From the NCBI GenBank assembly GCA_964394645.1, contig CAYMYC010000001.1, positions 117,299-181,298 of the forward strand: 64,000 bases of DNA, written 5' to 3'. The position numbers and the translations under genes are program-made. This document shows positions 9,593 to 49,648 of this stretch, in pieces. The notes below the pieces were generated by a model. The model made no database searches. It saw only the letters and a program-made list of their open reading frames with translations, and had not been told where the DNA came from. The stretch's first letter is position 1. The number at the start of each line of letters is the position of its first letter. Source of the stretch: an uncultured Gammaproteobacteria bacterium. GTDB taxonomy: Bacteria; Patescibacteriota; Microgenomatia; Levybacterales; GWA1-39-11.

Positions 9593-10702
9593 TTAAAGTT
9601 CAGTAAGTTTTTTTGAGGACTTTGTAAGGGAAATAATTTCTTTCCCGTTAAACAATACAGTATCTTCTATTCGTACGCCTCCAAAATTACTAATATAAAC
9701 CCCGGGCTCAATGGTAAAAGGAATGTTAGGGGTGAGTAAGTCGTTATATCCAGGAGATATGTGTGGTAATTCATGAACCTCAAGTCCCACCCCATGTCCT
9801 ACAGAGTGAGGTACTGATGGGTAGCCTTGAGATAGGATATAATTCCGGGAAGTCATATCTATGATTTCACCACTAAGCTTCTGAGTAGGTTCTCTTATTT
9901 GCAGTTCTAAAGCTTTTTCTTGTCCGATAAGTACTGTGTCATATATTTTTTGGAATTTTTTTGGTGCTTTTCCTATAAAAAATGTTCGGGTCATATCAGC
10001 ACAATATCCATTTACTTTTGCTCCAAAATCAAGCAGAATAATGCTTTTTCCCCCAAGCTTTTTATTACTTGTTTTATGGTGTGGTATTGCTGAGTTTTCT
10101 GAAAAGGCAACAATTGTTGGAAATGCGAGTTCTCCTCCTGATTCACGAATATATTTTTCAATTTCCCAAGCTATTTCTTTTTCGCTTTGACCTATTCTTA
10201 TTGTCTTGAGAATATGAGAATAGGTGTTATCTGTTAATGCGCATGCAGCTAGTAAATCTTGCAGTTCTTCTGTATCTTTGGTTTGTCTTATGAATTCAAT
10301 AATATCCTCTGTTAATATCAGCCTTACATTTTTCAGTTTTTTGAAATATTTGTACTCTGAATATGTTAAATTTTCTTCAAATCCAATTATTTTCAGCTTT
10401 TCACGGATTAGTATTTCCTGAATTTGTGGAATAAGTCTTTTCTCTGTTCCAAATTCTATGACCGTTGGGTTTTGTTTAGTGTAAGATATAGCTTCAACGC
10501 TTTTTCTAGCACCTTCATATAGTCTTGGATCGGCAAATATATAGAGATTTGTATTTGTTAATAATGCAAAACCTTCCCGTTCGTTAGCGCTAAAGCCATT
10601 AAAGCCTGTGAGGTAATTGATATTATAGGAAGATGAGATAAGCAGAGCATCAAGTTTTTCAGTCTCTAAAATGCGACGTGCTTGTTCTGTCCTATTTTTC
10701 AT
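9593..10702 (-). CDS. M24 family Xaa-Pro aminopeptidase (PepP-like)
   Basis: Creatinase N-domain plus M24 pita-bread motifs (HGVGLEVHE, D..GYCADMTRT). Start chosen at MKNRTEQ (10702) rather than the upstream ORF-track Met. Confidence 0.8.
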   Translation of the reverse strand: MKNRTEQARRILETEKLDALLISSSYNINYLTGFNGFSANEREGFALLTNTNLYIFADPRLYEGARKSVEAISYTKQNPTVIEFGTEKRLIPQIQEILIREKLKIIGFEENLTYSEYKYFKKLKNVRLILTEDIIEFIRQTKDTEELQDLLAACALTDNTYSHILKTIRIGQSEKEIAWEIEKYIRESGGELAFPTIVAFSENSAIPHHKTSNKKLGGKSIILLDFGAKVNGYCADMTRTFFIGKAPKKFQKIYDTVLIGQEKALELQIREPTQKLSGEIIDMTSRNYILSQGYPSVPHSVGHGVGLEVHELPHISPGYNDLLTPNIPFTIEPGVYISNFGGVRIEDTVLFNGKEIISLTKSSKKLTEL

Positions 10703-10795
10703 TCTGCAATTGTACCACATGGATCTTGACTTTTATAAAATTGGGTAAGGCTAATTGTTTACAAATACTTCTGACTTTGTTATACTTATCTTAGT

Positions 10796-10825
10796 TCGAG
10801 AGGCAGACTCTCGAATTATTTTTTT
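10796..10825 (+). terminator. Intrinsic-terminator-like hairpin in the fusA leader
   Basis: TCGAGAG-gcaga-CTCTCGA stem followed by ATTATTTTTTT; lies 18 nt upstream of the fusA ATG. Confidence 0.4.
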
Positions 10826-10842
10826 AAGAAAAACTAAATAAT

Positions 10843-13002
10843 ATGGCTGATCCATTAACAAAAGACCGCAACGTACCATTGGATAAAATTCGCAATATTG
10901 GGATTATTGCGCACATTGATGCAGGTAAAACTACAACTTCTGAGCGAATACTCTATTACACTGGAAAATCATACAAAATTGGAGATATTGATGATGGAAA
11001 TACTGTTATGGACTGGATGGATCAGGAGCGTGAACGGGGTATAACCATTGTGTCGGCTGCAACTACTACTTTTTGGACAAAAACAGAAGATCGCGCAAAA
11101 GGAATTGATAATCCATACAGAATTAACCTTATTGATACTCCAGGGCATGTAGATTTTACAGCCGAAGTAGAGCGTTCATTGCGCGTTTTGGATGGGGCAG
11201 TTACAGTGCTTGATGCAGAAGAAGGAGTGCAATCACAATCAGAAACAGTATGGCGTCAAGCTGATAAATATCATGTGCCACGCATTTGTTTCATAAATAA
11301 AATGGATAAATTAGGTGCAGATTTCTTAAAAACAGTTGCATCTATTGAAAAAAGATTAGGTGCAAATCCATGTATTATGGTTTTGCCTATTGGTGCTGAG
11401 AATGAATTTACTGGTGTTGTTGATCTCTTAAACATGAAATCCCTTGTGTGGTCAGGCGAAGAACTAGGTGCTAAATACGAAACTACTGATGAAATTCCAG
11501 AGAACATGAAAGCGCAAGTTGATGAATATAGGCTAAAAATGATTGAAAAGATTGCAGAAAATGACGATGAGTTGATGGAAAAATATTTGGAAGGAAAAGA
11601 GATTACTATTCCAGAATTAATGGCAGGGCTTAGACGTGCTGTAGTGGGATACAAATTGGTCCCAATTTATGCGGGATCATCATTAAGAAATAAAGGTGTT
11701 CAGCCCTTGCTTGATGCTGTTGTGGATTATCTTCCATCCCCTATGGATTTAAAGATGGTAAAAGGAATTAATCCTAAGAGTGGAGAGGAAGAAATTCGTG
11801 AATTAACTCCTGAAGCTCCATTTACTGGTTTTGCTTTTAAGGTTCAGATTGATTCACATGTAGGAAAAATTACATTTGTCCGTATTTATTCTGGGAAGTT
11901 AGTTTCTGGATCTTATGCATACAATTCCAGTAAAGACGTTCGCGAAAGGGTTGGAAGACTTCTTCTCATGCATTCAAATCAGCGTGAAGAAATAAAAGAG
12001 GCATATGCGGGAGAAATTGTAGCAGTTGTAGGACTTAAAGATACGATTACTGGTGAAACGCTTTGTGATGAAGCAAGGCCAATTATACTTGAGAAGATTT
12101 CATTTCCAGAACCAGTCATCTCTTTGGCTATTGAGCCCAAAACCAAGTCAGATCAAGAAAAAATGGGTCAAGCATTAAAAAGACTAATGGAGGAAGACCC
12201 TACTTTTACAGTAAAAATGAATCACGAAACTGGACAGACCATTATGTCTGGGGTTGGAGAGTTGCAGCTGGAAATTATGGTTGACCGTATGAAGCGCGAA
12301 TTTAATGTTGAGGCAAATGTCGGAGCACCTCAGGTTGCTTATAAGGAAACATTTGGACCTGGTGAAATTAAAGGGGAAGGAAAATATATCCGCCAAACAG
12401 GAGGAAAAGGACAATATGGACATTGTTTGATTCGCGTTGAGGGAAAGCCAAGAGGTGAAGGATACGAATTTGTAAATGCAATTAAGGGTGGAGCAATTCC
12501 TGCAGAATTCTGTACCTCAATAGAAAAAGGTATTAAAGAAACTCTTGAAAACGGGCTTTTACTTGGATATCCGGTTGTTGATTTAAAAGTTACATTGTAT
12601 GACGGGTCTTTTCATGAAGTCGACTCATCAGATATGGCATTTAAAATTGCTGGATCTATGGCGCTTCAGGATGCAGCGAAAAAAGGTCAGTTATCGCTTT
12701 TGGAGCCGATTATGAAAATAGAGGTAACCACCCCTGAAGAGTTTATGGGAGATGTGATAGGTGATCTTTCATCAAAGCGTGCACAGATTACGGGAACCGA
12801 AGAGCGCGGGAATGCGCGTATTATTCACGGAGAGGTTCCACTGGAAGAGCTTTCAGGATATGCTACTACAATTCGTTCTATGTCTCAGGGGCGTGCAACA
12901 TATTATATGGAGCCATCTCACTACCAAGAAGTTCCTCGAAACATTGTTGACGCAATGTTGGCAAAAACCACATTTACAGGACGTGTCTCCGCACAGTCAT
13001 AA
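10843..13002 (+). CDS. fusA: Elongation factor G
   Basis: 719 aa; GTPase G1 AHIDAGKTT, DTPGHVDF; EF-G domains IV and V. Confidence 0.95.
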   Translation: MADPLTKDRNVPLDKIRNIGIIAHIDAGKTTTSERILYYTGKSYKIGDIDDGNTVMDWMDQERERGITIVSAATTTFWTKTEDRAKGIDNPYRINLIDTPGHVDFTAEVERSLRVLDGAVTVLDAEEGVQSQSETVWRQADKYHVPRICFINKMDKLGADFLKTVASIEKRLGANPCIMVLPIGAENEFTGVVDLLNMKSLVWSGEELGAKYETTDEIPENMKAQVDEYRLKMIEKIAENDDELMEKYLEGKEITIPELMAGLRRAVVGYKLVPIYAGSSLRNKGVQPLLDAVVDYLPSPMDLKMVKGINPKSGEEEIRELTPEAPFTGFAFKVQIDSHVGKITFVRIYSGKLVSGSYAYNSSKDVRERVGRLLLMHSNQREEIKEAYAGEIVAVVGLKDTITGETLCDEARPIILEKISFPEPVISLAIEPKTKSDQEKMGQALKRLMEEDPTFTVKMNHETGQTIMSGVGELQLEIMVDRMKREFNVEANVGAPQVAYKETFGPGEIKGEGKYIRQTGGKGQYGHCLIRVEGKPRGEGYEFVNAIKGGAIPAEFCTSIEKGIKETLENGLLLGYPVVDLKVTLYDGSFHEVDSSDMAFKIAGSMALQDAAKKGQLSLLEPIMKIEVTTPEEFMGDVIGDLSSKRAQITGTEERGNARIIHGEVPLEELSGYATTIRSMSQGRATYYMEPSHYQEVPRNIVDAMLAKTTFTGRVSAQS

Positions 13003-40187: not shown

Positions 40188-40658
40188 TTATTCAACAGCT
40201 TTTTTTATTACATCAAAAGAAAATCCCCGGGATAGAAGAAGGCGCATCATTTTTTCTTTGAATTGAGTCTTGTCTAAATGAGAGTAAATTCTTTTTTTTC
40301 TTTCAACAAATGCTCTTGCGGTTACTAAGTCGTCTTGTGTATCTTTTGAGATCACATTTATAATATCATCGCTTATTCCCTTTTTCTTCAACTCATAGGA
40401 AATAAAGTATTTGCTTTTTCCTTTATAGTTCTGTCTACTACGAGCAAAACTTTTCCCGAATTCTTCATCGTTTAAAAAATTTAATTCTTTAAGCCGTAGA
40501 ATTGTTTGTGAGATAATATTACTTACAAACCCTTTTTTTGTTAAATAATTCTCAATTTCTTTAGTACTTCTTGCTCGTAAAGACAAATATCTTGCAGCAC
40601 TATTGAATGCATATTGTGGATCGTTGGGGTGTTCATTACTGAAGAGCTTCTTCCTCAT
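40188..40658 (-). CDS. recX: Regulatory protein RecX
   Basis: 156 aa three-helix-repeat protein immediately downstream of recA, with a 23-nt overlap. Confidence 0.7.
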
Positions 40659-41754
40659 TTTCCTCTTTTGTTTCCTCTACTCCCACTTCTATCATGGGTT
40701 TTTGTGATTCTGATTTTTTCATTACTTCATCAACTATTTTTTTTGCAGTATCTTTATGTTCGGTAAGATATGCTTTTGCCGATTCTCTTCCTTGCCCAAG
40801 CATTAGTTCGCCATATCGTAAGAATGCTCCAGATTTTTGAATTACTCCTGTTTCAATTCCCACATCTAAAATATTACCCTCACGAGAGATTCCGATACCA
40901 CCCATTACGTCGAATTCAGCAACACGAAAAGGTGGAGATACTTTATTTTTTACAACCTTGACGCGCGTTCTATTTCCAATCACTTTATCCCCATCTTTTA
41001 ATGTCTCAATCTTTCTAACATCAAGCCTAATTGATGCGTAAAATTTCAAAGCCATCCCTCCGGTAGTTGTTTCAGGGTTACCAAACATAACTCCAATTTT
41101 TTGCCTAAGCTGATTGGTAAATATGACAATAGTTTTAGATTTTGAAATTGCAGCAGTAAGTTTTCTTAGGGCTTGAGACATAAGCCTTGCTTGCATTCCC
41201 ATAACTGCGTCTCCCATTTCTCCTTCTATTTCAGCACGAGGAACAAGTGCTGCAACAGAGTCAATTACTATTACATCTACTCCTCCCGACCTAATAAGTT
41301 GTTCAGTGATTTCAAGCGCTTGTTCTCCTGTGTCTGGTTGAGAAATAATAAGATCCTCTAGCTTTACGCCAATAGTCTGAGCCCATAATGGGTCAAGTGC
41401 GTGTTCCGCATCTATAAATGCTGCTATTCCCCCAATTTTTTGAGCTTCTGCGATAACTGAAAGGCAAAGAGTAGTTTTCCCTGATGCCTCAGGTCCAAAT
41501 ATTTCAATAATGCGTCCTCGGGGAAATCCCCCAACTCCGAGTGCTAAGTCTAAGGCTAGTGCACCTGTTGGAATTACTTCTATAGCCATTTTTCCTGCCG
41601 AGTCACCAAATTTCATAATGGACCCTTTCCCATATTGTCTTTGAATTTGTTCCATTGCCATATTAATTGCTTGAAGACGTTGGGAGGAGGATGCGGAAGC
41701 GTTTGCTGCAGTGGTTGATAAGCCGTTTGTGGTGTTTGCTTTTGGTTTTGCCAT
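40636..41754 (-). CDS. recA: Recombinase A
   Basis: 372 aa; Walker [11 protein letters not shown] and L1/L2 loops; Thr/Ala-rich N-terminal extension. Confidence 0.95.
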
Positions 41755-41863: not shown

Positions 41864-41872
41864 TGGTAAAAT
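41864..41872 (+). promoter_or_regulatory. Extended -10 promoter element (TGgTAAAAT) upstream of tRNA-Pro
   Basis: TGGTAAAAT ends 9 nt upstream of the tRNA 5' end. Confidence 0.35.
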
Positions 41873-41878
41873 CACTTG

Positions 41879-43447
41879 TTACGGGATGTAGTATAGTGGT
41901 AGTACGCTGCGCTGGGGGTGCAGTAGTCCGCGTTCGATTCGCGGCATCCCGACACTGAGAGAAGAGCCGGCGGAAAGCTCCGCCGGTGAAAGTCCCGCAA
42001 TCGCGGGACGGATTGAGTCAAAGCCCTTTTTAAAATTGGCGTAAACACAGCCATCCTCTAAAAAGAAGTTCGAGCCGACATGTTTTGCTAGATTTGCCAA
42101 ATCTAGTTGGTTATTTTTTGCGCGCGCTATTTTGTCGCATGACGATGCGACATTTATGAATTCCCTAAGAGGTTCGAGCGAGCGAGAACCTCCCTCCTCC
42201 AAAACCTCTATCTTTTCCTGAATTTTTATCTTTTCTTCAAAGAGTTCATTCTTCTTTCTCTTGTAGTTATCGCCCTCAATGTCCCCCTCAAGATAACTAT
42301 CAAGAAGAATGTCCATCTTCTTATCGAGAGACGAAGCTTCCTCTTTTAATTTTCTCATCCTTACATCCGATAAGCCTTTTTCGGATATTTCATCCCTTTC
42401 TACTAACCCCAGCCACCGGTCGCGCCATGAGGTAGGGATGGAAACGGATAAAACAATTTTTCTTAATTGGTCTTCAAGTTCTTGGGCAGTCACCATTTTT
42501 TGGGAACACGGACCCATCTTTTTGGTACAGCGGTAATAAATATAAGTTGCCGAACGGTTAGTCCCTTTATAAAACTTTACATGCCTTTCGGCAGTTACGG
42601 AAGCACCGCACTCTTTACAGCGAAGAAGACCCAAAAACGTAAAGACCGGAAGCTTACTATTTTGCCTAACTTTTCTATTTAACTTTTCCTGGACTTTATT
42701 GAACAACTCTTTAGAGATGAAAGTCTTGTGGGTCCCGAGATGATACTCGCCGTTGTATTTTAAAATGCCGATGTAGAATTTGTTGGACAATATCTTTCTG
42801 ACTTGGTTAAGGTGTAAAGGCTTTCCGTTTTCCTTTTTTATCCCCAATTTTAAAAAGTAATTTGAAATATCCGTAAAGGTTTTATCCTGTTCGCAAAACA
42901 ACTCAAATGCCCCTTTTATGGCCCGAGCTTCGTTTGGGACTATATCAATGCCTCGAGTCTTCGGGTTGTTGGAATAACCATAGGTAGTCTTCCCAGGCCA
43001 GACGCCATTTCGTATCTTTTGCCGAAGCCCCCTTTTAACATTCTCGCTAAGATTGTCGATGTAATATTTGCTTTGGCCGAAGGCGATATTTAACATGAAC
43101 TTTCCCTGTGGAGTGTTATCAAACCAAAATGTAGGAAACTTTAAATCCTTTAATTTTCCGGTATCAAGCAAATAGATGATCTTGCCCCCGTCAATAGAAT
43201 TTCTTGCAAGTCTGTCCGGATGCCAAGCAAGAATACCACCGGCTCTGCCTCTTTCGATAAGTTGCATGACTTTAGCAAATTTTTCCCGTCCTGGGGCTTT
43301 GGCGGTCTTTGCCTCTTCAATAACTTCGAGGATCTCAAGCTTCTCCCGTTTTGCGAACTCAAAAAGCTCAGCAATTTGCGCTTCAATGGATAAAACCTGC
43401 TTATCGGCTTCGTCTCTTGATTTACGGCAGTAAATTATGTATTTCAT
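41879..43447 (-). CDS. Large serine recombinase (resolvase/invertase catalytic domain + recombinase domain + Zn ribbon + coiled coil)
   Basis: N-terminal YCRKSRDE catalytic-Ser motif; Cys-rich ribbon (CKECG...CTKKMGPC); 522 aa. The last ~55 codons are read through IR1-L and antisense to tRNA-Pro. Confidence 0.85.
   Translation of the reverse strand: MKYIIYCRKSRDEADKQVLSIEAQIAELFEFAKREKLEILEVIEEAKTAKAPGREKFAKVMQLIERGRAGGILAWHPDRLARNSIDGGKIIYLLDTGKLKDLKFPTFWFDNTPQGKFMLNIAFGQSKYYIDNLSENVKRGLRQKIRNGVWPGKTTYGYSNNPKTRGIDIVPNEARAIKGAFELFCEQDKTFTDISNYFLKLGIKKENGKPLHLNQVRKILSNKFYIGILKYNGEYHLGTHKTFISKELFNKVQEKLNRKVRQNSKLPVFTFLGLLRCKECGASVTAERHVKFYKGTNRSATYIYYRCTKKMGPCSQKMVTAQELEDQLRKIVLSVSIPTSWRDRWLGLVERDEISEKGLSDVRMRKLKEEASSLDKKMDILLDSYLEGDIEGDNYKRKKNELFEEKIKIQEKIEVLEEGGSRSLEPLREFINVASSCDKIARAKNNQLDLANLAKHVGSNFFLEDGCVYANFKKGFDSIRPAIAGLSPAELSAGSSLSVGMPRIERGLLHPQRSVLPLYYIP
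41882..41952 (+). tRNA. tRNA-Pro (anticodon GGG), hand-folded
   Basis: Cloverleaf: acceptor CGGGATG/CATCCCG, D-arm GTAT-AGTGGTA-GTAC, anticodon stem CTGCG/TGCAG with loop CTGGGGG (G37), T-arm CCGCG-TTCGATT-CGCGG, discriminator A; CCA not encoded. Confidence 0.8.
41950..42052. repeat. IR1-L: ~103-bp inverted repeat arm (near-exact partner at 43487-43590)
   Basis: Reverse complement of 43487-43590 (1 mismatch, 1-nt indel). Contains internal GC hairpins CCGGCGG-aaagct-CCGCCGG and GTCCCGC-aatc-GCGGGAC. Confidence 0.9.
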
Positions 43448-43486
43448 GGCAGTTAAAATTTTCGCGTTTATCTCCTCTTCTTTTTT

Positions 43487-43590
43487 GGCTTGTGTTTACG
43501 CCAATTTCAAAAAGGGCTTTGACTCAATCCGTCCCGCGATTGCGGGACTTTCACCGGCGGAGCTTTCCGCCGGCTCTTCTCTCAGTGTCG
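43487..43590. repeat. IR1-R: inverted copy of IR1-L, 40 nt upstream of the recombinase start
   Basis: Direct alignment to the reverse complement of 41950-42052. Confidence 0.9.
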
Positions 43591-43647
43591 AGATCTATGA
43601 AAAAGTTAGAACTCTTCTTTGTTAGCTCGGCCGCTTCGCGGCCTCGC
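43587..43647. repeat. IR2-L: 61-bp inverted repeat arm abutting IR1-R through a shared GTCG
   Basis: Exact reverse complement of 48923-48984; contains GGCCGC-ttc-GCGGCC hairpin. Confidence 0.9.
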
Positions 43648-43876
43648 CAAAACATGTCGGCTCGAATTTGAAACGCGAAAATTTTTTTCAATTTAAAATG
43701 GCCGCTCTGGTTGAACACAACAGGATCTCTCCAATTGTCCAAAGCGGCCATCAAAAAAGAGATCCAAAAATGTTGTGTTCGATTTTAATATACCAGTTTC
43801 ACGAGTTTAATCAACTAAGAGTATCTATAACAAATATATAGTTTTGCTACAATTAAAAAAGATGTGAACATCTAGT

Positions 43877-45691
43877 ATGAAATTTCCCATTAAGAAATTG
43901 TCCGAGTTTAGAACAACTATTAAATCATCAAAGAGATTGCTGGGGTTACTTTGGAACATTGATAAATGGCTATTTACAGGAAATTTGATTTCAGTAAGTG
44001 TTCCAGCAATTATTCCTTTTGTTAACGCTTATATCTATAAGCTTATTATTGATTTAATTATTGCGGGAGTCGGTAGTACTGACTTTGACTATCAGCAACT
44101 TTTTTGGCTTATAGCCATGAGAGTAGGCACACTTTTTATACAAGATGCTGCTTTTTCTGCACAAAACTATTTTGAAATGCTTCTTTGGACGAAATTTCCT
44201 GTGCATCTTTATCAAGCTGTTCTTACAAAACTATCAGATTTAGATGTTCAATACTTTGAAGATAGTTCTTTTAAAGATAGATTGGAAAAGGTAAGAGAGG
44301 CATATGCATGGAGGCCGTTAAATATGCTCTCACATCTGTTCTACAGCTTCCAAGGCGTATTACAAGTTTTAATTGCACTAGTTGCAATAGCAACCCTTAA
44401 TTGGTTTTTAATCTTTTTAATCCTTCTTGTGGCTATCCCAACATTTGTGAATCAAACTCACTACGCAAAAATCACTTGGGGTGTATGGCAGGATAACTCT
44501 CCCTATAGAAAGAAGTTTTGGTACTTATCAGATTTAATTCAGGGGGGACAAAGTGTGAAAGAGATAAAAATTTTTCAAATGGCCCCAAAGTTTTTGTCTG
44601 AACTGACTAACATCTATAACAAGTTTGTTAAAGACAATGCAAAAGTAGCTAAAAAGCAACTTCGTACAAATATCTTATTTAACATGCTTGGTACGGGTGT
44701 ATATATTGGAATTGAGATCTTTATTATTCTTGCTGCCGTTGCAAAGAGGATTTCTATAGGGGATATAACCTACTTTACAGCTGTAGTTAGTAATTTCCAA
44801 AATGGAGTCAATGGATTATTCCGTAATACTTCTCAATTGTTTGACCAAAGTCTTTATGTTCAGGAGATGTTTGAAGTTTTAGATATTAAGTCAAAAATAA
44901 CCCAACCTGCTAATGCTGTAAAAATAGACATACATGAAGGACCTAAAATTGAGTTCAGAAATGTAAGTTTTATTTATCCCGGGGCCGGAGAAAAAATCCT
45001 CAATGATTTTTCCCTGACAATTGAACCGGGTCAGAAGATTGCGTTTGTTGGAGAAAATGGCGCTGGTAAAACAACAATTGTGAAATTATTAGCCCGATTT
45101 TATGATGTAAACGAAGGGGAAATCTTAGTAAATGGCATTAACCTTAAAGAACTTGATTTACCAACTTGGTATAAAACTTTAGGGGTTCTCTTTCAAGACT
45201 TTATTAGGTATGAGTACCCATTTCACGAGAATATATACTTTGGAAAGATTTTTGAGCCTGAAAATATTGAGGAAATTAAGCATGCTGCAAAATTGGCAGG
45301 AGCAGATACCGTAGCTTCACAGTTACCTAAGGGCTACGACCAAATGCTTGGAAAGACTTTTGAGGGAGGGATTGATTTATCTGCAGGCCAATGGCAAAAA
45401 GTGGCGCTAGCAAGAGGTTTTCTACGAGATGCCCCTATTCTAATATTAGATGAGCCAACGGCAGCAATTGACGCGAAAGCGGAAGCAGAGATATTTGATA
45501 GGGTGGAAAGGTTATCTAAAGATAAAACTGTAATTATAATTTCCCATAGATTTTCTACCGTAAGAAATGCCGATAAGATTTACGTGATAGAGAAAGGTAA
45601 AATAAAAGAAGATGGCAGCCACGAACAGCTTATGAGGGAAAATGGAACTTATGCAACCCTATTTAACCTTCAAGCAAAAGGTTATAAATAA
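43877..45691 (+). CDS. ABC transporter, fused permease/ATPase (type I exporter)
   Basis: 6 TM N-terminal domain; NBD with Walker A GENGAGKTT, signature LSAGQ, Walker B ILILDE. Confidence 0.9.
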   Translation: MKFPIKKLSEFRTTIKSSKRLLGLLWNIDKWLFTGNLISVSVPAIIPFVNAYIYKLIIDLIIAGVGSTDFDYQQLFWLIAMRVGTLFIQDAAFSAQNYFEMLLWTKFPVHLYQAVLTKLSDLDVQYFEDSSFKDRLEKVREAYAWRPLNMLSHLFYSFQGVLQVLIALVAIATLNWFLIFLILLVAIPTFVNQTHYAKITWGVWQDNSPYRKKFWYLSDLIQGGQSVKEIKIFQMAPKFLSELTNIYNKFVKDNAKVAKKQLRTNILFNMLGTGVYIGIEIFIILAAVAKRISIGDITYFTAVVSNFQNGVNGLFRNTSQLFDQSLYVQEMFEVLDIKSKITQPANAVKIDIHEGPKIEFRNVSFIYPGAGEKILNDFSLTIEPGQKIAFVGENGAGKTTIVKLLARFYDVNEGEILVNGINLKELDLPTWYKTLGVLFQDFIRYEYPFHENIYFGKIFEPENIEEIKHAAKLAGADTVASQLPKGYDQMLGKTFEGGIDLSAGQWQKVALARGFLRDAPILILDEPTAAIDAKAEAEIFDRVERLSKDKTVIIISHRFSTVRNADKIYVIEKGKIKEDGSHEQLMRENGTYATLFNLQAKGYK

Positions 45692-45735
45692 ACTTTTTTT
45701 CCCAAAAGACAATTAACCCATCGAGTGGCGGCACA

Positions 45736-46275
45736 CTATTTTCTATTTCTTGAGGCATATCGACGAAGAGATTCACTACCGACAAGGGCACCCATGAAGC
45801 TTACTGATGCTAGAAAGGATGCTGCAGCTCTATTGTGAGAATCTTTCCCAACCTCTTTACTATCATCTTTCTTAAGATCCTCCTCCAGATACTTTAATAC
45901 CATGTCTCTTTTTTCCTCTACTGGAAGTTCTTCGAAGCCATCTAGTTTTTCTTTGTTCTCTTCGTAGAAGTCCTTTACTTGATCTGGTATCGCTTGCTCT
46001 AATCCTTCAAAAGTAAACCCTTGCAAAGGGAGGGGGTCAACATCGTCAACTTGATCTTTGATTTTAGCTTCATTTCTTGCGTCTCCATATGCTACTGAAT
46101 CGTAAGTAACTGATGGAAGGAATGTTGCCATAGATGCAAGACCCGCTATACCCATTGCCGCATTTAGACCCTTCCACCCACGATGCTCATTTCTTGGGGA
46201 TTGTTCCCTCAACGTGTCTTCTTGACCCAACTGATCTTGCTGTTCTTCTTCCATATAGTAAAGTGAGTTTAACAA
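45736..46275 (-). CDS. Hypothetical acidic protein
   Basis: 179 aa, Glu/Asp-rich; no family assignable; inside the IR2-bounded cargo. Confidence 0.45.
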   Translation of the reverse strand: MLNSLYYMEEEQQDQLGQEDTLREQSPRNEHRGWKGLNAAMGIAGLASMATFLPSVTYDSVAYGDARNEAKIKDQVDDVDPLPLQGFTFEGLEQAIPDQVKDFYEENKEKLDGFEELPVEEKRDMVLKYLEEDLKKDDSKEVGKDSHNRAAASFLASVSFMGALVGSESLRRYASRNRK

Positions 46276-46378
46276 CTCTCAAATTTTCTGTCAAATTTGT
46301 GTAACCCATCAAAAAGGCTGACTGAGTTGGATAAATAGACTTTTGACTTTTAAATTAGCAGTGTGATTCAATAGGTTA

Positions 46379-47068
46379 ATGGATGGTGACATAGAAAGTT
46401 CTCCTCAATCGGTGATTACATCACTTGATGTCAGCGAAAATAAAGCCAACTTCATGCATGAAGACCAAAAAGAAGCACCCGAAGCTCCAGAGTTTGGTAT
46501 TAAACTCTCTCCTGGTATACGATTGTTTCATGGAAGGTCGTCAACCGAAGACATTGATATCTGGCCCCTTCCGGTCGCCAAAAGAACGGTCAATGGTCTT
46601 GGGTTTTATTGCACAACCGACCCAGCAATTGCAAATCCATACGCTAAGATAGATCTAAGAAATGAATCTGCCGCCCGGGTTTATCCTCTTACACCGAAAG
46701 AAGAATTAACGCTTTTTAACGGTTTTATAAAAGATAAAGGTACTTTTTCAAAATATCTAGCAGAGAAAATTTTTGATGAAAATGATGAGAGAAAAGAAAA
46801 GTTTTTAGAAGAGATTAGAAGACTTAGGGAGATGAATAAAGATGGATTCGTTTTCAGCGATAATGTATTAGGAGTAATTCTGTCTTTCGTTGATGAGGAA
46901 AAAGCAAAAGATCTTGAGGAAAAGAAAATTCTTGAAAATGAAGTTCTGAAAAAGGTAGGTTATGATGGTAAAGGATGCGAGGAAAACGGTGTTATGGATG
47001 ATACAATTCTGATTTTTGATCCTGGAAAATTAGAAACGGAATTTAATGCAGAGCAAAAAGCCGCATAG
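46379..47068 (+). CDS. Hypothetical protein
   Basis: 229 aa; no confident family; weak RLFHGRSST motif noted. Confidence 0.5.
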   Translation: MDGDIESSPQSVITSLDVSENKANFMHEDQKEAPEAPEFGIKLSPGIRLFHGRSSTEDIDIWPLPVAKRTVNGLGFYCTTDPAIANPYAKIDLRNESAARVYPLTPKEELTLFNGFIKDKGTFSKYLAEKIFDENDERKEKFLEEIRRLREMNKDGFVFSDNVLGVILSFVDEEKAKDLEEKKILENEVLKKVGYDGKGCEENGVMDDTILIFDPGKLETEFNAEQKAA

Positions 47069-47122
47069 CAATCATAGAGTGAATTCCACTAAAATAGATT
47101 CATTAGATCGAGAAGTAAATAT

Positions 47123-47506
47123 ATGGAAAAACGAATTGGCACAGTAGGATTCATTGTTAATAACAATAAAGTTTTGTTAGCACATATTCAATACCCAGAG
47201 GGCAAAAAATTATGGAATGGGATCGGAGGATTTGTTAATAAAGGAGAAAAACTTGAGGACGCCTTAATAAGAGAAATCAGCGAAGAAACATATATACAAG
47301 TTAGCAAAGACGAAGTGCGTTTGGTGAAAGAATTGGACGAGGATATCAGACTTTTAATTTTTAAAATTAATAACTGGAAAGGAGAACTTAAAATTAAAGA
47401 CTCATCAATTAAGGAGTTAAGGTGGTTTAAATTTGATGAAATTCCATTTTCAGAAATGCATGATGGAAATGAAAAGTGGCTACCTGACTTATTAAAAACA
47501 CCATAG
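47123..47506 (+). CDS. Nudix hydrolase
   Basis: Nudix box GGFVNKGEKLEDALIREISEETYI. Confidence 0.8.
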   Translation: MEKRIGTVGFIVNNNKVLLAHIQYPEGKKLWNGIGGFVNKGEKLEDALIREISEETYIQVSKDEVRLVKELDEDIRLLIFKINNWKGELKIKDSSIKELRWFKFDEIPFSEMHDGNEKWLPDLLKTP

Positions 47507-47540
47507 TTACATTGTAATTTCGTATACTAATATTAATACA

Positions 47541-48338
47541 ATGAAAATTCATTTTATTGGATTATCATGTTTTCTTATTGAAAATGCCGCTGGCTTTCGA
47601 ATACTAGTTGATCCTTTTGAGGATAACCCCGAGTGGACGTTGGGTCCTATATTTCCAAAGGAATTTAGCAGTAAACCCTTTGGAACAAATATTGTATTGA
47701 TGTCTGAAACTGATGCTGATCATGCAAGGGCTCCACATGAATGGCAACAAAATGCACCTATTGTAAAGCCTGACAATAATCCTTTTCCAAATTTAAATTT
47801 GAGTGGTACATTAGTGCATGAATGGAATGGTGAAGCTTGCATTGCCTGGCATTATACTATTGATGGTATACGGCTTGCTCATTTTTCAGACCATGCTCAC
47901 CCGTTGACCGTAGAACAACTTACAGAAATAGGAAATCCCGATATTATCTTTTACCCACTTCCAAAAGTATCGTGGGACGATCAAGAAGCGTTTAATATCA
48001 TAAGAGAAGATATTAGCAAGCTCAAACCAAAAATTGTAATTTGGGCACATTTTATAGCACCTAAAAATATGCCTTCAGTGGATGATAAAGAAGCGCTCAG
48101 ATCATATTTTATCCAATATTTTAAAGACAACGCATCGACTAACTTGGGATACAAAGGTGAAGACAGTTTTATGGAATTAGGAAATATGATATACAGTGGT
48201 TTCAAACTCACAAATGAATTAAACGGAAAGATAATGGAAGCACCTACGCTGGAGCTTGACCAAACAACAGTTGATGCTTTTCAGCAACCAACTCCATTTT
48301 TCTTCACCAGTATGCTTGCTACTTCAAAAACTGAATAA
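47541..48338 (+). CDS. MBL-fold-like hydrolase (paralog of 8207-8869)
   Basis: N-terminal beta-lactamase-fold pattern (FLIENAAGFRILVDP..ETDADHA). Confidence 0.55.
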   Translation: MKIHFIGLSCFLIENAAGFRILVDPFEDNPEWTLGPIFPKEFSSKPFGTNIVLMSETDADHARAPHEWQQNAPIVKPDNNPFPNLNLSGTLVHEWNGEACIAWHYTIDGIRLAHFSDHAHPLTVEQLTEIGNPDIIFYPLPKVSWDDQEAFNIIREDISKLKPKIVIWAHFIAPKNMPSVDDKEALRSYFIQYFKDNASTNLGYKGEDSFMELGNMIYSGFKLTNELNGKIMEAPTLELDQTTVDAFQQPTPFFFTSMLATSKTE

Positions 48339-48339
48339 T

Positions 48340-48920
48340 ATCAAAACAAGTCATAAGCCTGTGGTGATCCACATCGGTTTTTTGGATTTTTCTTTTCTTG
48401 GGCGGCATCCACCGCCCCCGCCCGCATGGAATTGCGCCCTAAAAAGAGAAAAATACTTTACTGGTAGCCAATGAATTAGTAGGAACTATACAAAGTATTT
48501 TTCTCCCACACGAGCCCCGCGAGAATTTGTCTTGTTAAAAGAGAACGCGGGGCGAGTCAGTAGGTGTCTTCTTAATGGTTTTAAACAGGAAGGGACTAAA
48601 TAAAAGTCGGCGGGGGCGAATAAGCGGACACCCCTCCGACGGCGCTTCCTTTTTAAATGGAAATAATTTTTCGGAAGAGACTGTATTAAGGTTTTAGAAC
48701 TGGCAAAACTTTGGCGAGTTGCGCCTTAGTGCAACCTGCGCCCAAAGGAAGGGGTCGCCGCCACAATATCTTGGGTGGGTTGGGTTTTGTAGGATAAGAC
48801 TCACGGTTTGTTTTATATTCTTTTTTAAAGGGAGTACAATAATCCAATATTTATAATTTGTCCGCGTAGGGAGGGATTTTGGGACAATGACAATTTCTTT
48901 TTTCTTCGCGCGCAAAAAAT
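48340..48920. other. GC-rich hairpin-dense noncoding region (candidate structured RNA or recombination region)
   Basis: Multiple perfect GC stems in AT-rich context: GGGCGG-catcca-CCGCCC, GCCCCGCG...CGCGGGGC, GTCGGCGGGG...CCCCTCCGAC, GTTGC...GCAAC. No credible ORF. Confidence 0.5.
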
Positions 48921-48922
48921 AA

Positions 48923-48984
48923 CCTAGCGAGGCCGCGAAGCGGCCGAGCTAACAAAGAAGAGTTCTAACTTTTTCATAGATCTC
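48923..48984. repeat. IR2-R: inverted copy of IR2-L closing the 5.3-kb cargo segment
   Basis: Exact reverse complement of 43587-43647. Confidence 0.9.
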
Positions 48985-49051
48985 GACTGAATAAAATATG
49001 AGGAAATGATTTTCAAGAACCTCTTCAGTAAGTGTCTGGTATACTGAGAAA

Positions 49052-49648
49052 ATGAATTTGTTTACTTTTTTGCTTCAGAGCAATATCCAAGTAATTATAG
49101 GAGTGCATCTAGTAGGTGTAGTAATAGGATTTGGAGGCGCAATAATCACAGATATACTTTTTTTAAAATTCGTAAGAAATGGCAAAATCGTCAAAAGTGA
49201 GGTGGGTGTTCTTGTAACTATGTCAAAAATAATTTGGGCAGGCATTTTGATAATTGCTGTTACCGGTCTTTTTATTTTACTTTCAGATGTAGAACGCTAT
49301 ACTCATTCAGCAAAATTTTTACTTAAAATGTTGGTGGTTTGGGTAATAGTTATTAATGGATTAATCTTAAATTTTGTTATAACGCCTACATTACCTCTTG
49401 TCAATTTTGGGAAAATAAGTAATTCAAAGGATAAGACAAATAAAATAAGAAGCTTAGTATTTATAACAGGTGCAGTTTCCGCAACTTCATGGTGGACTGT
49501 TTTTATATTAGGAATGTTACGTTTTTCTCCTGTGTCTTTTACAGTTCTTCTGAGTATCTATTTGTTAATATTGGCAGGTGCAATTATAGGGAGCCTTGTA
49601 TTAAATAGTTTACTTGCAAAAGGCATTATCAAATATTCATCTTTGTAG
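49052..49648 (+). CDS. Integral membrane protein (hypothetical)
   Basis: 198 aa, about 5 TM helices. Confidence 0.5.
   Translation: MNLFTFLLQSNIQVIIGVHLVGVVIGFGGAIITDILFLKFVRNGKIVKSEVGVLVTMSKIIWAGILIIAVTGLFILLSDVERYTHSAKFLLKMLVVWVIVINGLILNFVITPTLPLVNFGKISNSKDKTNKIRSLVFITGAVSATSWWTVFILGMLRFSPVSFTVLLSIYLLILAGAIIGSLVLNSLLAKGIIKYSSL

Follow-up and report, generated by a model that had tools for sequence, protein, structure and literature searches.

A large serine recombinase element at the 3' end of a tRNA-Pro gene with a retained, inverted attP-like site

Introduction

The nearest described system to the locus reported here is that of the ssrA islands of Dehalococcoides, in which a serine integrase of ~540 amino acids (aa), DsiB, adjoins the attachment site attL on the reverse strand, the 3' end of its gene overlaps the tRNA-like 3' end of the target gene and tandem arrays lie downstream (McMurdie et al. 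2011, PMC3146451). According to published papers, no serine integrase is known to use tRNA genes as targets, and Mageeney et al. (2020) listed 14 candidate cases of serine integrases at tRNA genes, calling this use previously unreported and in need of proof. Here we analyse a window of 64,000 nt from an uncultured bacterium placed by GTDB in the Patescibacteriota (GenBank assembly GCA_964394645.1, contig CAYMYC010000001.1, positions 117,299 to 181,298; positions below count from the first letter of the window). Beside a tRNA-Pro(GGG) gene it holds the gene of a 522-aa large serine recombinase (LSR) and two nested pairs of inverted repeats, IR1 and IR2. We consider it highly probable that a 7,034-bp element was placed by its own LSR at the last nucleotides of this tRNA gene, and the role that we assign below to an internal copy of its attP belongs to the same explanation. 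This element belongs to a large variant of serine-integrase elements that has apparently not been described before.

The present locus and its relatives share with the ssrA islands the integrase at attL, a gene 3' end lying over the end of a t(m)RNA, and tandem arrays. They also share an ambiguity: McMurdie et al. suggested that DsiB is possibly complete only on the circular form, and the same doubt about the 3' end arises for the window enzyme with its two tails (PMC3146451). By their description, the islands are set apart by a tmRNA target, an exchange inferred in the T-loop, a 20-bp direct repeat, and an integration module of six genes, one of them for a second, small serine recombinase (DsiA); no second recombinase was found in the window element. 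Their paper makes no mention of inverted repeats or of an internal attP, and the word 'inverted' is absent from it (PMC3146451). More generally, full-text searches of the literature turned up no description of nested repeats or of an internal inverted attP, an absence that is not proof of novelty.

Phage large serine integrases (Bxb1, phiC31, A118/LI, SPbeta) resemble the window enzyme in their Resolvase, Recombinase and zinc-ribbon domains, in a short attP/attB core and in an outer DBD2 motif that lies 4-5 bp nearer the centre in attB. Unlike in those phages, the target here is a tRNA 3' end with the T-loop as recognition motif, the 3' end of the gene runs into attP/attL, the element retains a further, inverted attP in its interior, and the family's elements are cargo cassettes of 2.5-9 kb and not phages, with no directionality factor recognised among the cargo open reading frames (ORFs) by Pfam search. 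The Hin/Gin/Cin invertases are ~190-aa proteins with a C-terminal helix-turn-helix that act at ~26-bp sites with an enhancer; they do not integrate and are not mobile. The likeness to Hin/Gin-type segments lies in a recombinase gene enclosed by a segment with inverted-repeat ends, and in the inversion of this module in one relative; unlike them, the locus has a 522-aa integrase-type enzyme and arms of 61-109 nt (60-190 bp for the elements as a group), and the element moves between genomes. The yeast 2-micron plasmid (FLP/FRT) is a eukaryotic plasmid with a tyrosine recombinase, whose sites recombine mutually for copy-number amplification. The circle that we infer for the present element would be like it in having two inverted sites and two unique segments, one holding the recombinase gene; unlike in the plasmid, replication genes are absent here, the circle was not observed and attP x attP exchange is not expected. 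Islander-type tRNA islands of tyrosine integrases are alike in 3'-tRNA insertion that keeps the tRNA functional, in a tRNA-proximal integrase, in variable cargo including defence genes and in tandem arrays. In contrast to these islands, the enzyme here is a serine recombinase, 3-19 nt are shared instead of a long tRNA-fragment repeat, and the repeats are nested and inverted, not direct.

The interest of the element is twofold: a tRNA T-loop is used as attB half-site, and an internal inverted attP identical to the element ends is conserved. The latter is without a described counterpart and raises a testable question on how a unidirectional integrase is regulated.

Results and discussion

Empty sites and a second host

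Conspecific contigs were found by exact look-up of the flanking proteins (RecA and a 198-aa protein at 49052). Several of them carry an empty site (L085, L086, L087, L089, L091, L092), with flanks 99.8-100% identical to the window and the order recA, tRNA-Pro, CCCGAC joined directly to TGAATAAAATATGAGG, then the next gene, with nothing between, in at least six independent samples. The alignments stop at 41953 and resume at 48980 (an 8-nt overlap), and the window surplus is exactly 7,034 bases. Comparison of the empty site with attL and attR gave no target-site duplication beyond the core. An empty tRNA-Pro site with the tRNA joined directly to this flank had been predicted from the window alone in a first-pass annotation of the same DNA.

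The same element, 99.7-99.9% identical, is present in a different organism (GCA_041920255.1). In this second host attL (L112) lies at a different tRNA-Pro(GGG) sequence, with the junction ...CTCCTCCCGAC to ACTGAGAG, and attR (L105) runs from ...GATCTCGAC to ACATTTATC; the flanking genes differ from those of the window, and the recA homologue has only 75% nucleotide identity to window recA. The cargo proteins recur in about 30 further sample blocks, mostly on ~5.2-5.4-kb contigs that end in IR2 arms. Because conspecific genomes have empty sites and another host carries the same element at its own tRNA-Pro(GGG), we conclude from these comparisons that the element is mobile and site-specific and was recently transferred between hosts. 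The first-pass assignment of attL (tRNA end joined to IR1), attR (IR2 joined to the flank) and a retained inverted attP-like site is supported by both the empty site and the second host.

The tRNA gene, the LSR and both repeat pairs of that annotation all exist, with coordinates right to within 4 nt. IR1, given there as 41950-42052 and 43487-43590, was adjusted to 41946-42049 and 43491-43594; with one indel allowed it spans 41946-42053 and 43486-43594 (109 columns, 97%). For IR2 the arm at 43587-43647 stands, and the right arm, placed at 48923-48984, was off by 3-4 nt and is actually at 48927-48987. The inner arms of the two repeats do abut as described, with an overlap of 8 nt (43587-43594, GTCGAGAT) and not of GTCG alone. 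No chance origin is plausible for near-perfect inverted repeats of 104 nt and 61 nt within 10 kb.

Attachment sites and crossover geometry

The tRNA-Pro(GGG) gene is the left (B-type) half of attB and of attL. Writing b for the outer arm of IR1, c for the outer arm of IR2 and e for the right flank, attB is the tRNA 3' end followed by TGAATAAA, attL is the tRNA joined to b, attR is c joined to e, and the internal copy (43486-43647) is c joined to b, inverted relative to attL and attR. Exchange is placed within the 4-nt core CGAC because of the comparison of attB, attL, the internal copy and attR; on these alignments it must have taken place there, and the tRNA therefore stays intact. The left arms keep their own base at a C/T difference (41949 versus 48983) five bases away from the boundary. 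The shared part of attL and attR is 8 nt with one mismatch (ATCYCGAC), and there is no long direct repeat of a tRNA fragment. In all loci of the family with both repeat pairs, the junctions of tRNA end with b, of c with b and of c with e share a core of 3-19 nt that is the last bases of the tRNA, and the right half of attB (e) shows no conservation between hosts.

The outer motifs of the two kinds of left half-site are offset. In the window, the T-loop GTTCGAT starts 22 nt from the crossover boundary in the tRNA and GTTCTAA starts 26 nt from it in the c arm. Across the family loci the distance from the boundary to the start of GTTC(G/T)RA is 22-24 nt for the tRNA and 26-29 nt for the c arm, and the c-arm motif is shifted outward by +4 or +5 relative to the tRNA T-loop in 48/48 loci (four apparent '-6' values arose from the regular expression matching a second site). 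Large serine integrases have their DBD2 motif 5 bp (4 bp in SPbeta) nearer the centre in attB than in attP, an offset between half-sites that is the basis of directionality (PMC11722253). Because the 4-5 bp offset seen here matches this attP/attB geometry, we take the tRNA to be a B-type half-site and c a P-type half-site, and thus more than a tRNA-restoring fragment. That IR2 mimics the tRNA 3' end, as first annotated, is correct as far as it goes, and incomplete: the T-loop-like motif lies 4 nt further out, hence a P-type half-site.

By this geometry, the outer motif that the LSR family uses in the left half-site of attB is the T-loop of the tRNA (GTTCRA). In retargeting to at least 12 tRNA isotypes, the family has kept this one recognition motif and changed only the core and its spacing. 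This natural series of integrases is a data set on how specificity and the distinction between attP and attB are encoded, and is relevant to genome engineering.

The recombinase gene and its two 3' ends

The Pfam search of the LSR gave Resolvase (PF00239, E 1.2e-19, residues 4-150), Recombinase (PF07508, E 4.6e-15, residues 171-258) and Zn_ribbon_recom (PF13408, E 5.7e-8, residues 271-327); the recombinase domains found in the element are of the serine type only, with no tyrosine Phage_integrase domain. Its translation has the catalytic motif YCRKS with Ser10, and residues ~340-430 are rich in charged heptad-like sequence. The best PDB relative is the SPbeta integrase, with an alignment that begins at residue 5, and identity to phage integrases is at most 31%. 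The recombinase module contains this single recombinase gene, and a second one is absent from the cargo by ORF list and Pfam search. A degraded second gene at the far end of the cargo was considered and rejected: tblastn found short duplicated pieces only.

The first-pass annotation described the gene as flanked by IR1. The outer arm is in fact the 3' coding end of the gene: the opposite strand of b encodes the C-terminal ~35 residues, by translation and by alignment of homologue C-termini, and beyond it the ORF reads on across the entire tRNA, its last 23 codons being antisense tRNA. In the excised form the enzyme is predicted to have 510 aa and the tail ...SLSV-EIYEKVRTLLC (SLSVEIYEKVRTLLC), read through the junction of b' with c'. 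This attP-form tail is conserved in relatives (W.C.[FYL]E[KN]IRT.F), and the integrated form ends in variable antisense-tRNA sequence.

At a threshold of E <= 1e-20 the recombinase has at least 7,563 homologues, mostly of 500-560 aa and, by record labels, mostly from Patescibacteria. The C-termini of most of them are antisense tRNA translations, for example ...SLSVGVRRIELQPHGPQPRILPLNYTP. A subgroup of ~865-911 aa (e.g. P0002, P0004, P0005, P0008, P0010) is 45-54% identical over 74-90% of the query, and some of its members end in the attP-type tail (...IRT.F). Within the coding region of the window gene, between the pieces that are duplicated as 'A' and 'B' (Table 1), lies a perfect 19-nt palindrome, CTAGATTTGGCAAATCTAG, at 42088-42106.

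Distribution of the architecture

We compared 160 relative loci, 80 from species-representative genomes and 80 from metagenomes. In 117/130 informative loci the recombinase gene ends at a tRNA gene of the opposite strand; 12 isotypes are represented. IR1, of 45-136 nt, is present in 93/102 informative loci, where it connects the junction of recombinase 3' end and tRNA to a site that precedes the recombinase start by 24-200 nt. IR2, of 75-196 nt, abuts IR1 in 44/51 informative loci and extends 0.8-7 kb further upstream. Most relatives also have a 26-32-nt piece analogous to 'B'. The layout had been called atypical, which is fair when set against the literature; within this recombinase family it is the rule. 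On the sequences compared, it defines a large, apparently undescribed family of elements at many tRNA genes. With thousands of enzymes, this family breaks the generalisation that tRNA genes are the targets of tyrosine integrases; it is probably also a main route by which streamlined Patescibacteria gain genes.

Where a tRNA is missing, the locus is mostly a tandem array, with the end of the recombinase adjoining the c arm of another element. Arrays of different family members at one tRNA were seen in L033, L056, L025, L016, L196 and L135, with c2-b1 junctions; attL, a tRNA half with a foreign right half, can therefore still be a target for another element. The cargo varies across the family, often beginning with an XRE regulator of ~70 aa that faces away from the recombinase and precedes restriction-modification or other accessory genes. 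Several GTDB-representative records of metagenome-assembled genomes (MAGs) among the close relatives (L001-L003, L007, L008, L013 and others) are titled 'uncultured Gammaproteobacteria'. These titles may be mislabelled, since the records look like those of Patescibacteria in their recombinases and gene surroundings. The Patescibacteria-like character of the window genome itself is read from the labels of its nearest relatives.

Role of the internal attP copy

Under the explanation that we favour, excision by attL x attR would yield a circle with two inverted attP sites. With the internal copy, the recombinase module (R) would lie between ~100-bp repeats in the chromosome and be able to invert, and inversion of R would swap the tRNA-antisense tail for the conserved tail encoded by c, as in the excised form. 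Recombination between the arms, probably RecA-dependent, would keep them identical. The internal copy is most likely retained for inversion or for a double-attP role; in our ranking, a second attP or inversion substrate that regains the free-form 3' end comes before a regulatory or RNA-insulator role, and phase variation comes last.

Both the arms and a flipped relative bear on this. Among between-locus substitutions in b, 732/767 are mirrored in both IR1 arms, and 36/64 IR1 arm pairs are 100% identical, a concordance that points to continuing recombination or gene conversion between arms, with RecA as the likely homogenising agent. In the relative L136 (Ga0194111_10001118, a 32.9-kb contig) the recombinase module is flipped: at 9764-11500 it is co-directional with the tRNA, in the order tRNA-Leu(+), b, X, recombinase(+), ending ...B-X. 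The assembly is unambiguous because no inverted repeat remains. This order is as expected from a flip of the module followed by loss of the internal attP between B copies that had been turned into direct repeats, and L136 would be a fixed, probably immobile derivative that documents module inversion. The flipped form with the attP-encoded tail was also found in contigs L082-L084 and in 4 of the 120 homologues listed.

A number of points weigh against this explanation. Contigs L082-L084 are interrupted within one arm of IR1 and could reflect a wrong choice of path in the assembly graph, and the conservation of the attP-form tail may just mirror a conserved DNA-binding motif. The recombinase of every other informative locus is directed into the tRNA, and wherever the cargo has an XRE gene, this gene stands at the attP-proximal end; therefore, neither module is at inversion equilibrium. 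Integration via the internal attP, which would reverse both modules, was not seen in the surveyed loci, and neither an excised circle nor a junction running from the far end of the cargo through c and b to the recombinase 3' end was recovered in contigs. The lack of a recognised directionality factor, mentioned above, belongs here as well, as do promoter and terminator scans that were not above shuffled expectation. A conserved small gene across the internal copy (a 62-aa ORF at 43437-43625) was also rejected, with an ATG-started ORF in only 10/49 relatives.

Searches for free or circular forms gave no plasmid match, phage matches of at most 31% and one truncated IMG/VR hit; an exact match to c joined to b was absent from viral contigs, and no contig had a terminal overlap. 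One contig running from the far end of the cargo through c into 26 nt of b (L103) was considered as a circle junction and rejected, given that c joined to b is in every copy as the internal site and that k=31 contigs are unable to resolve a 61-nt repeat. The repeat arms were also searched for structured RNA: at both gathering and E-value thresholds Rfam returned the tRNA only, and we put a weak Acido-1 match (27.6 bits, with a cutoff of 50) down to chance.

A bolder version of the explanation can be put forward only tentatively. The elements might form an unrecognised, abundant class, with at least 7,563 recombinases mostly in Patescibacteria, in which the T-loop is the attB half-site and the internal attP an obligatory, built-in switch. 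If the cassette inverted between attL and the internal attP, the enzyme would change both its 3' end and its transcriptional context. Such a change between an integrated, silenced form and a free form would gate excision and re-integration without a conventional directionality factor, and the excised circle would hold two equivalent attP sites.

Alternative explanations

The internal attP may instead be mainly regulatory, with the recombinase, or perhaps an XRE protein at the X repeats, binding between divergent promoters and inversion an occasional by-product; alternatively, the long inverted arms might form double-stranded RNA or terminators that silence the recombinase after integration. 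We regard this pair of proposals as rather unlikely, though there is a case for them. The composite of the two inner arms is invariably found between the divergent modules, 24-200 nt ahead of the recombinase start, and the orientation of these modules is essentially fixed across loci. The composite is flanked by the short inverted X sequences, of which one sits just upstream of the recombinase start codon and the other just upstream of the first cargo-side ATG (a candidate operator or leader), and equivalent pairs of 21-27 nt flank the composite in relatives. An XRE-type gene adjoins the internal attP in many relatives and is absent from the window element. Arm b has two GC-rich hairpins that look like terminators, among them the one at 41967-41986. 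A binding site, however, needs about 50 bp and not 160-300 bp kept identical to both element ends; the promoter scan gave nothing above chance, and L136 shows that inversion occurs. Phase variation, in which the enzyme would mainly flip the cargo (between IR2 arms), its own gene (between IR1 arms) or both, and not move the element, is less likely still. It would account for two nested pairs of inverted repeats with the exchange point at a shared core, for a recombinase gene inside a repeat-bounded segment as in Hin, and for the flipped modules of L136 and L082-L084. Yet mobility is evident from the presence/absence polymorphism at an exact site and from the occurrence of this element in a second host, the cargo orientation is constant with XRE proximal wherever present, the enzyme is of the 522-aa integrase type and not a small invertase, and the att half-sites are of P and B type. 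The annotation had offered a pure invertase-controlled segment as an alternative, which leaves the presence/absence polymorphism and the transfer between hosts unexplained.

It had also offered two abutting units bounded by terminal inverted repeats (TIRs), that is, two independent units with palindromic sites (b' to b and c to c') inserted separately, each with its own TIRs. The junction logic permits this, with R bounded by b and b' and the cargo module (K) by c' and c, and near-identical recombinase and att modules do occur with different cargos, as in L032 versus L041. Excision by a serine recombinase between inverted sites requires a palindromic central dinucleotide. Because several cores lack one (those of L004, L013 and L015, GTCCAC...), we hold two such units to be very improbable. 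Besides, none of the surveyed loci has R alone beside flank e or K alone beside a tRNA, and it is the full 7,034 bp that the empty site lacks, without a target duplication. A TIR transposon is not what the ends resemble either: those of the 7,034-bp unit (b... and ...c) are not mutual inverted copies, and each pairs with the internal composite. As for an assembly or amplification artefact, with chimeric inverted junctions at the repeat boundaries, many contigs of relatives do end at these boundaries, and short k-mers are unable to resolve orientation between 100-nt inverted repeats. We nevertheless give it practically no chance. The structure is identical in the window, in an independent k=141 MEGAHIT contig (L098/L111) and in the other host (L112); the architecture recurs with different sequences in the 93 loci with IR1; and mirrored substitutions in the arms cannot arise artefactually. 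The surveyed loci with this architecture include one cultured isolate, Schleiferia thermophila DSM 21410 (L019), and two complete genomes (CP011214, CP011210); an artefact of assembly or of multiple displacement amplification, which the annotation had allowed for, is therefore ruled out. The nested repeats do explain many of the contig breaks beside tRNA genes in MAGs.

Cargo and neighbouring sequence

Table 1. Coordinates of the element, its repeats, its genes and the target tRNA in the window
Feature	Position	Strand	Details
tRNA-Pro(GGG)	41882-41952/3	+	ARAGORN; Rfam RF00005, 59.2 bits; identical tRNA in empty-site contigs
Core CGAC	41950..41953	+	common to attB, attL, internal attP (43587-43590 as GTCG) and attR (48984-48987)
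Integrated element	41954..48987	.	7,034 bp; absent from conspecific genomes
IR1	41946-42049 / 43491-43594	inverted	104 nt, 98%; repeat scan
IR2	43587-43647 / 48927-48987	inverted	61 nt, 100%
IR1 outer arm 'b', P' arm of attL	41946..42053	+	repeat match; translation; homologue C-terminal alignment
Internal attP copy (c joined to b on minus strand)	43486..43647	-	IR1 inner arm 43486-43594 and IR2 inner arm 43587-43647
IR2 outer arm 'c', P arm of attR	48927..48987	+	repeat match, junction comparison
'B' copy	43648..43669	+	22-nt inverted duplicate of recombinase codons 42066-42087; abuts inner IR2 arm
'A' copy	48907..48924	+	18-nt inverted duplicate of recombinase codons 42109-42126; abuts outer IR2 arm
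'X'	43455..43469, inverted copy 43671-43685	.	15 nt
Large serine recombinase gene, 522-aa ORF	43447->41879	-	PF00239, PF07508, PF13408
Cargo module K	43648..48926	.	5,279 bp; recovered as separate ~5.2-5.4-kb contigs in many samples
ABC transporter	43877-45691	+	cargo K
ORF	45736-46275	-	cargo K
229-aa ORF	46379-47068	+	cargo K
NUDIX	47123-47506	+	cargo K
Metallo-beta-lactamase-fold	47541-48338	+	cargo K
GC-rich non-coding stretch	48340-48926	+	587 nt, GC ~0.48 vs ~0.35 nearby

The GC-rich stretch at the far end of the cargo has stops in one translated frame and no plus-strand ORF of at least 50 aa lying within it. Its predicted RNA fold is well below that of shuffled controls on the plus strand (z = -4.5; on the minus strand z = -2.4), and no Rfam match was found for it at E <= 5; judged by the folding prediction, it may be an unfamiliar structured RNA carried by the element.

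Directly upstream of the targeted tRNA-Pro lie recA (40636-41754, minus strand) and recX (40188-40658, minus strand), an ordinary housekeeping context. Just inside the cargo, beside the internal attP, is an inverted repeat, ATGGCCGCT...AGCGGCCAT, at 43698-43751 with a 36-nt loop, which could be an operator or an RNA hairpin or terminator. Contigs L082 and L083 preserve its pairing with different bases (ATGGCCG/CGGCCAT; GATGGCCCAT/ATGAGCCATC).

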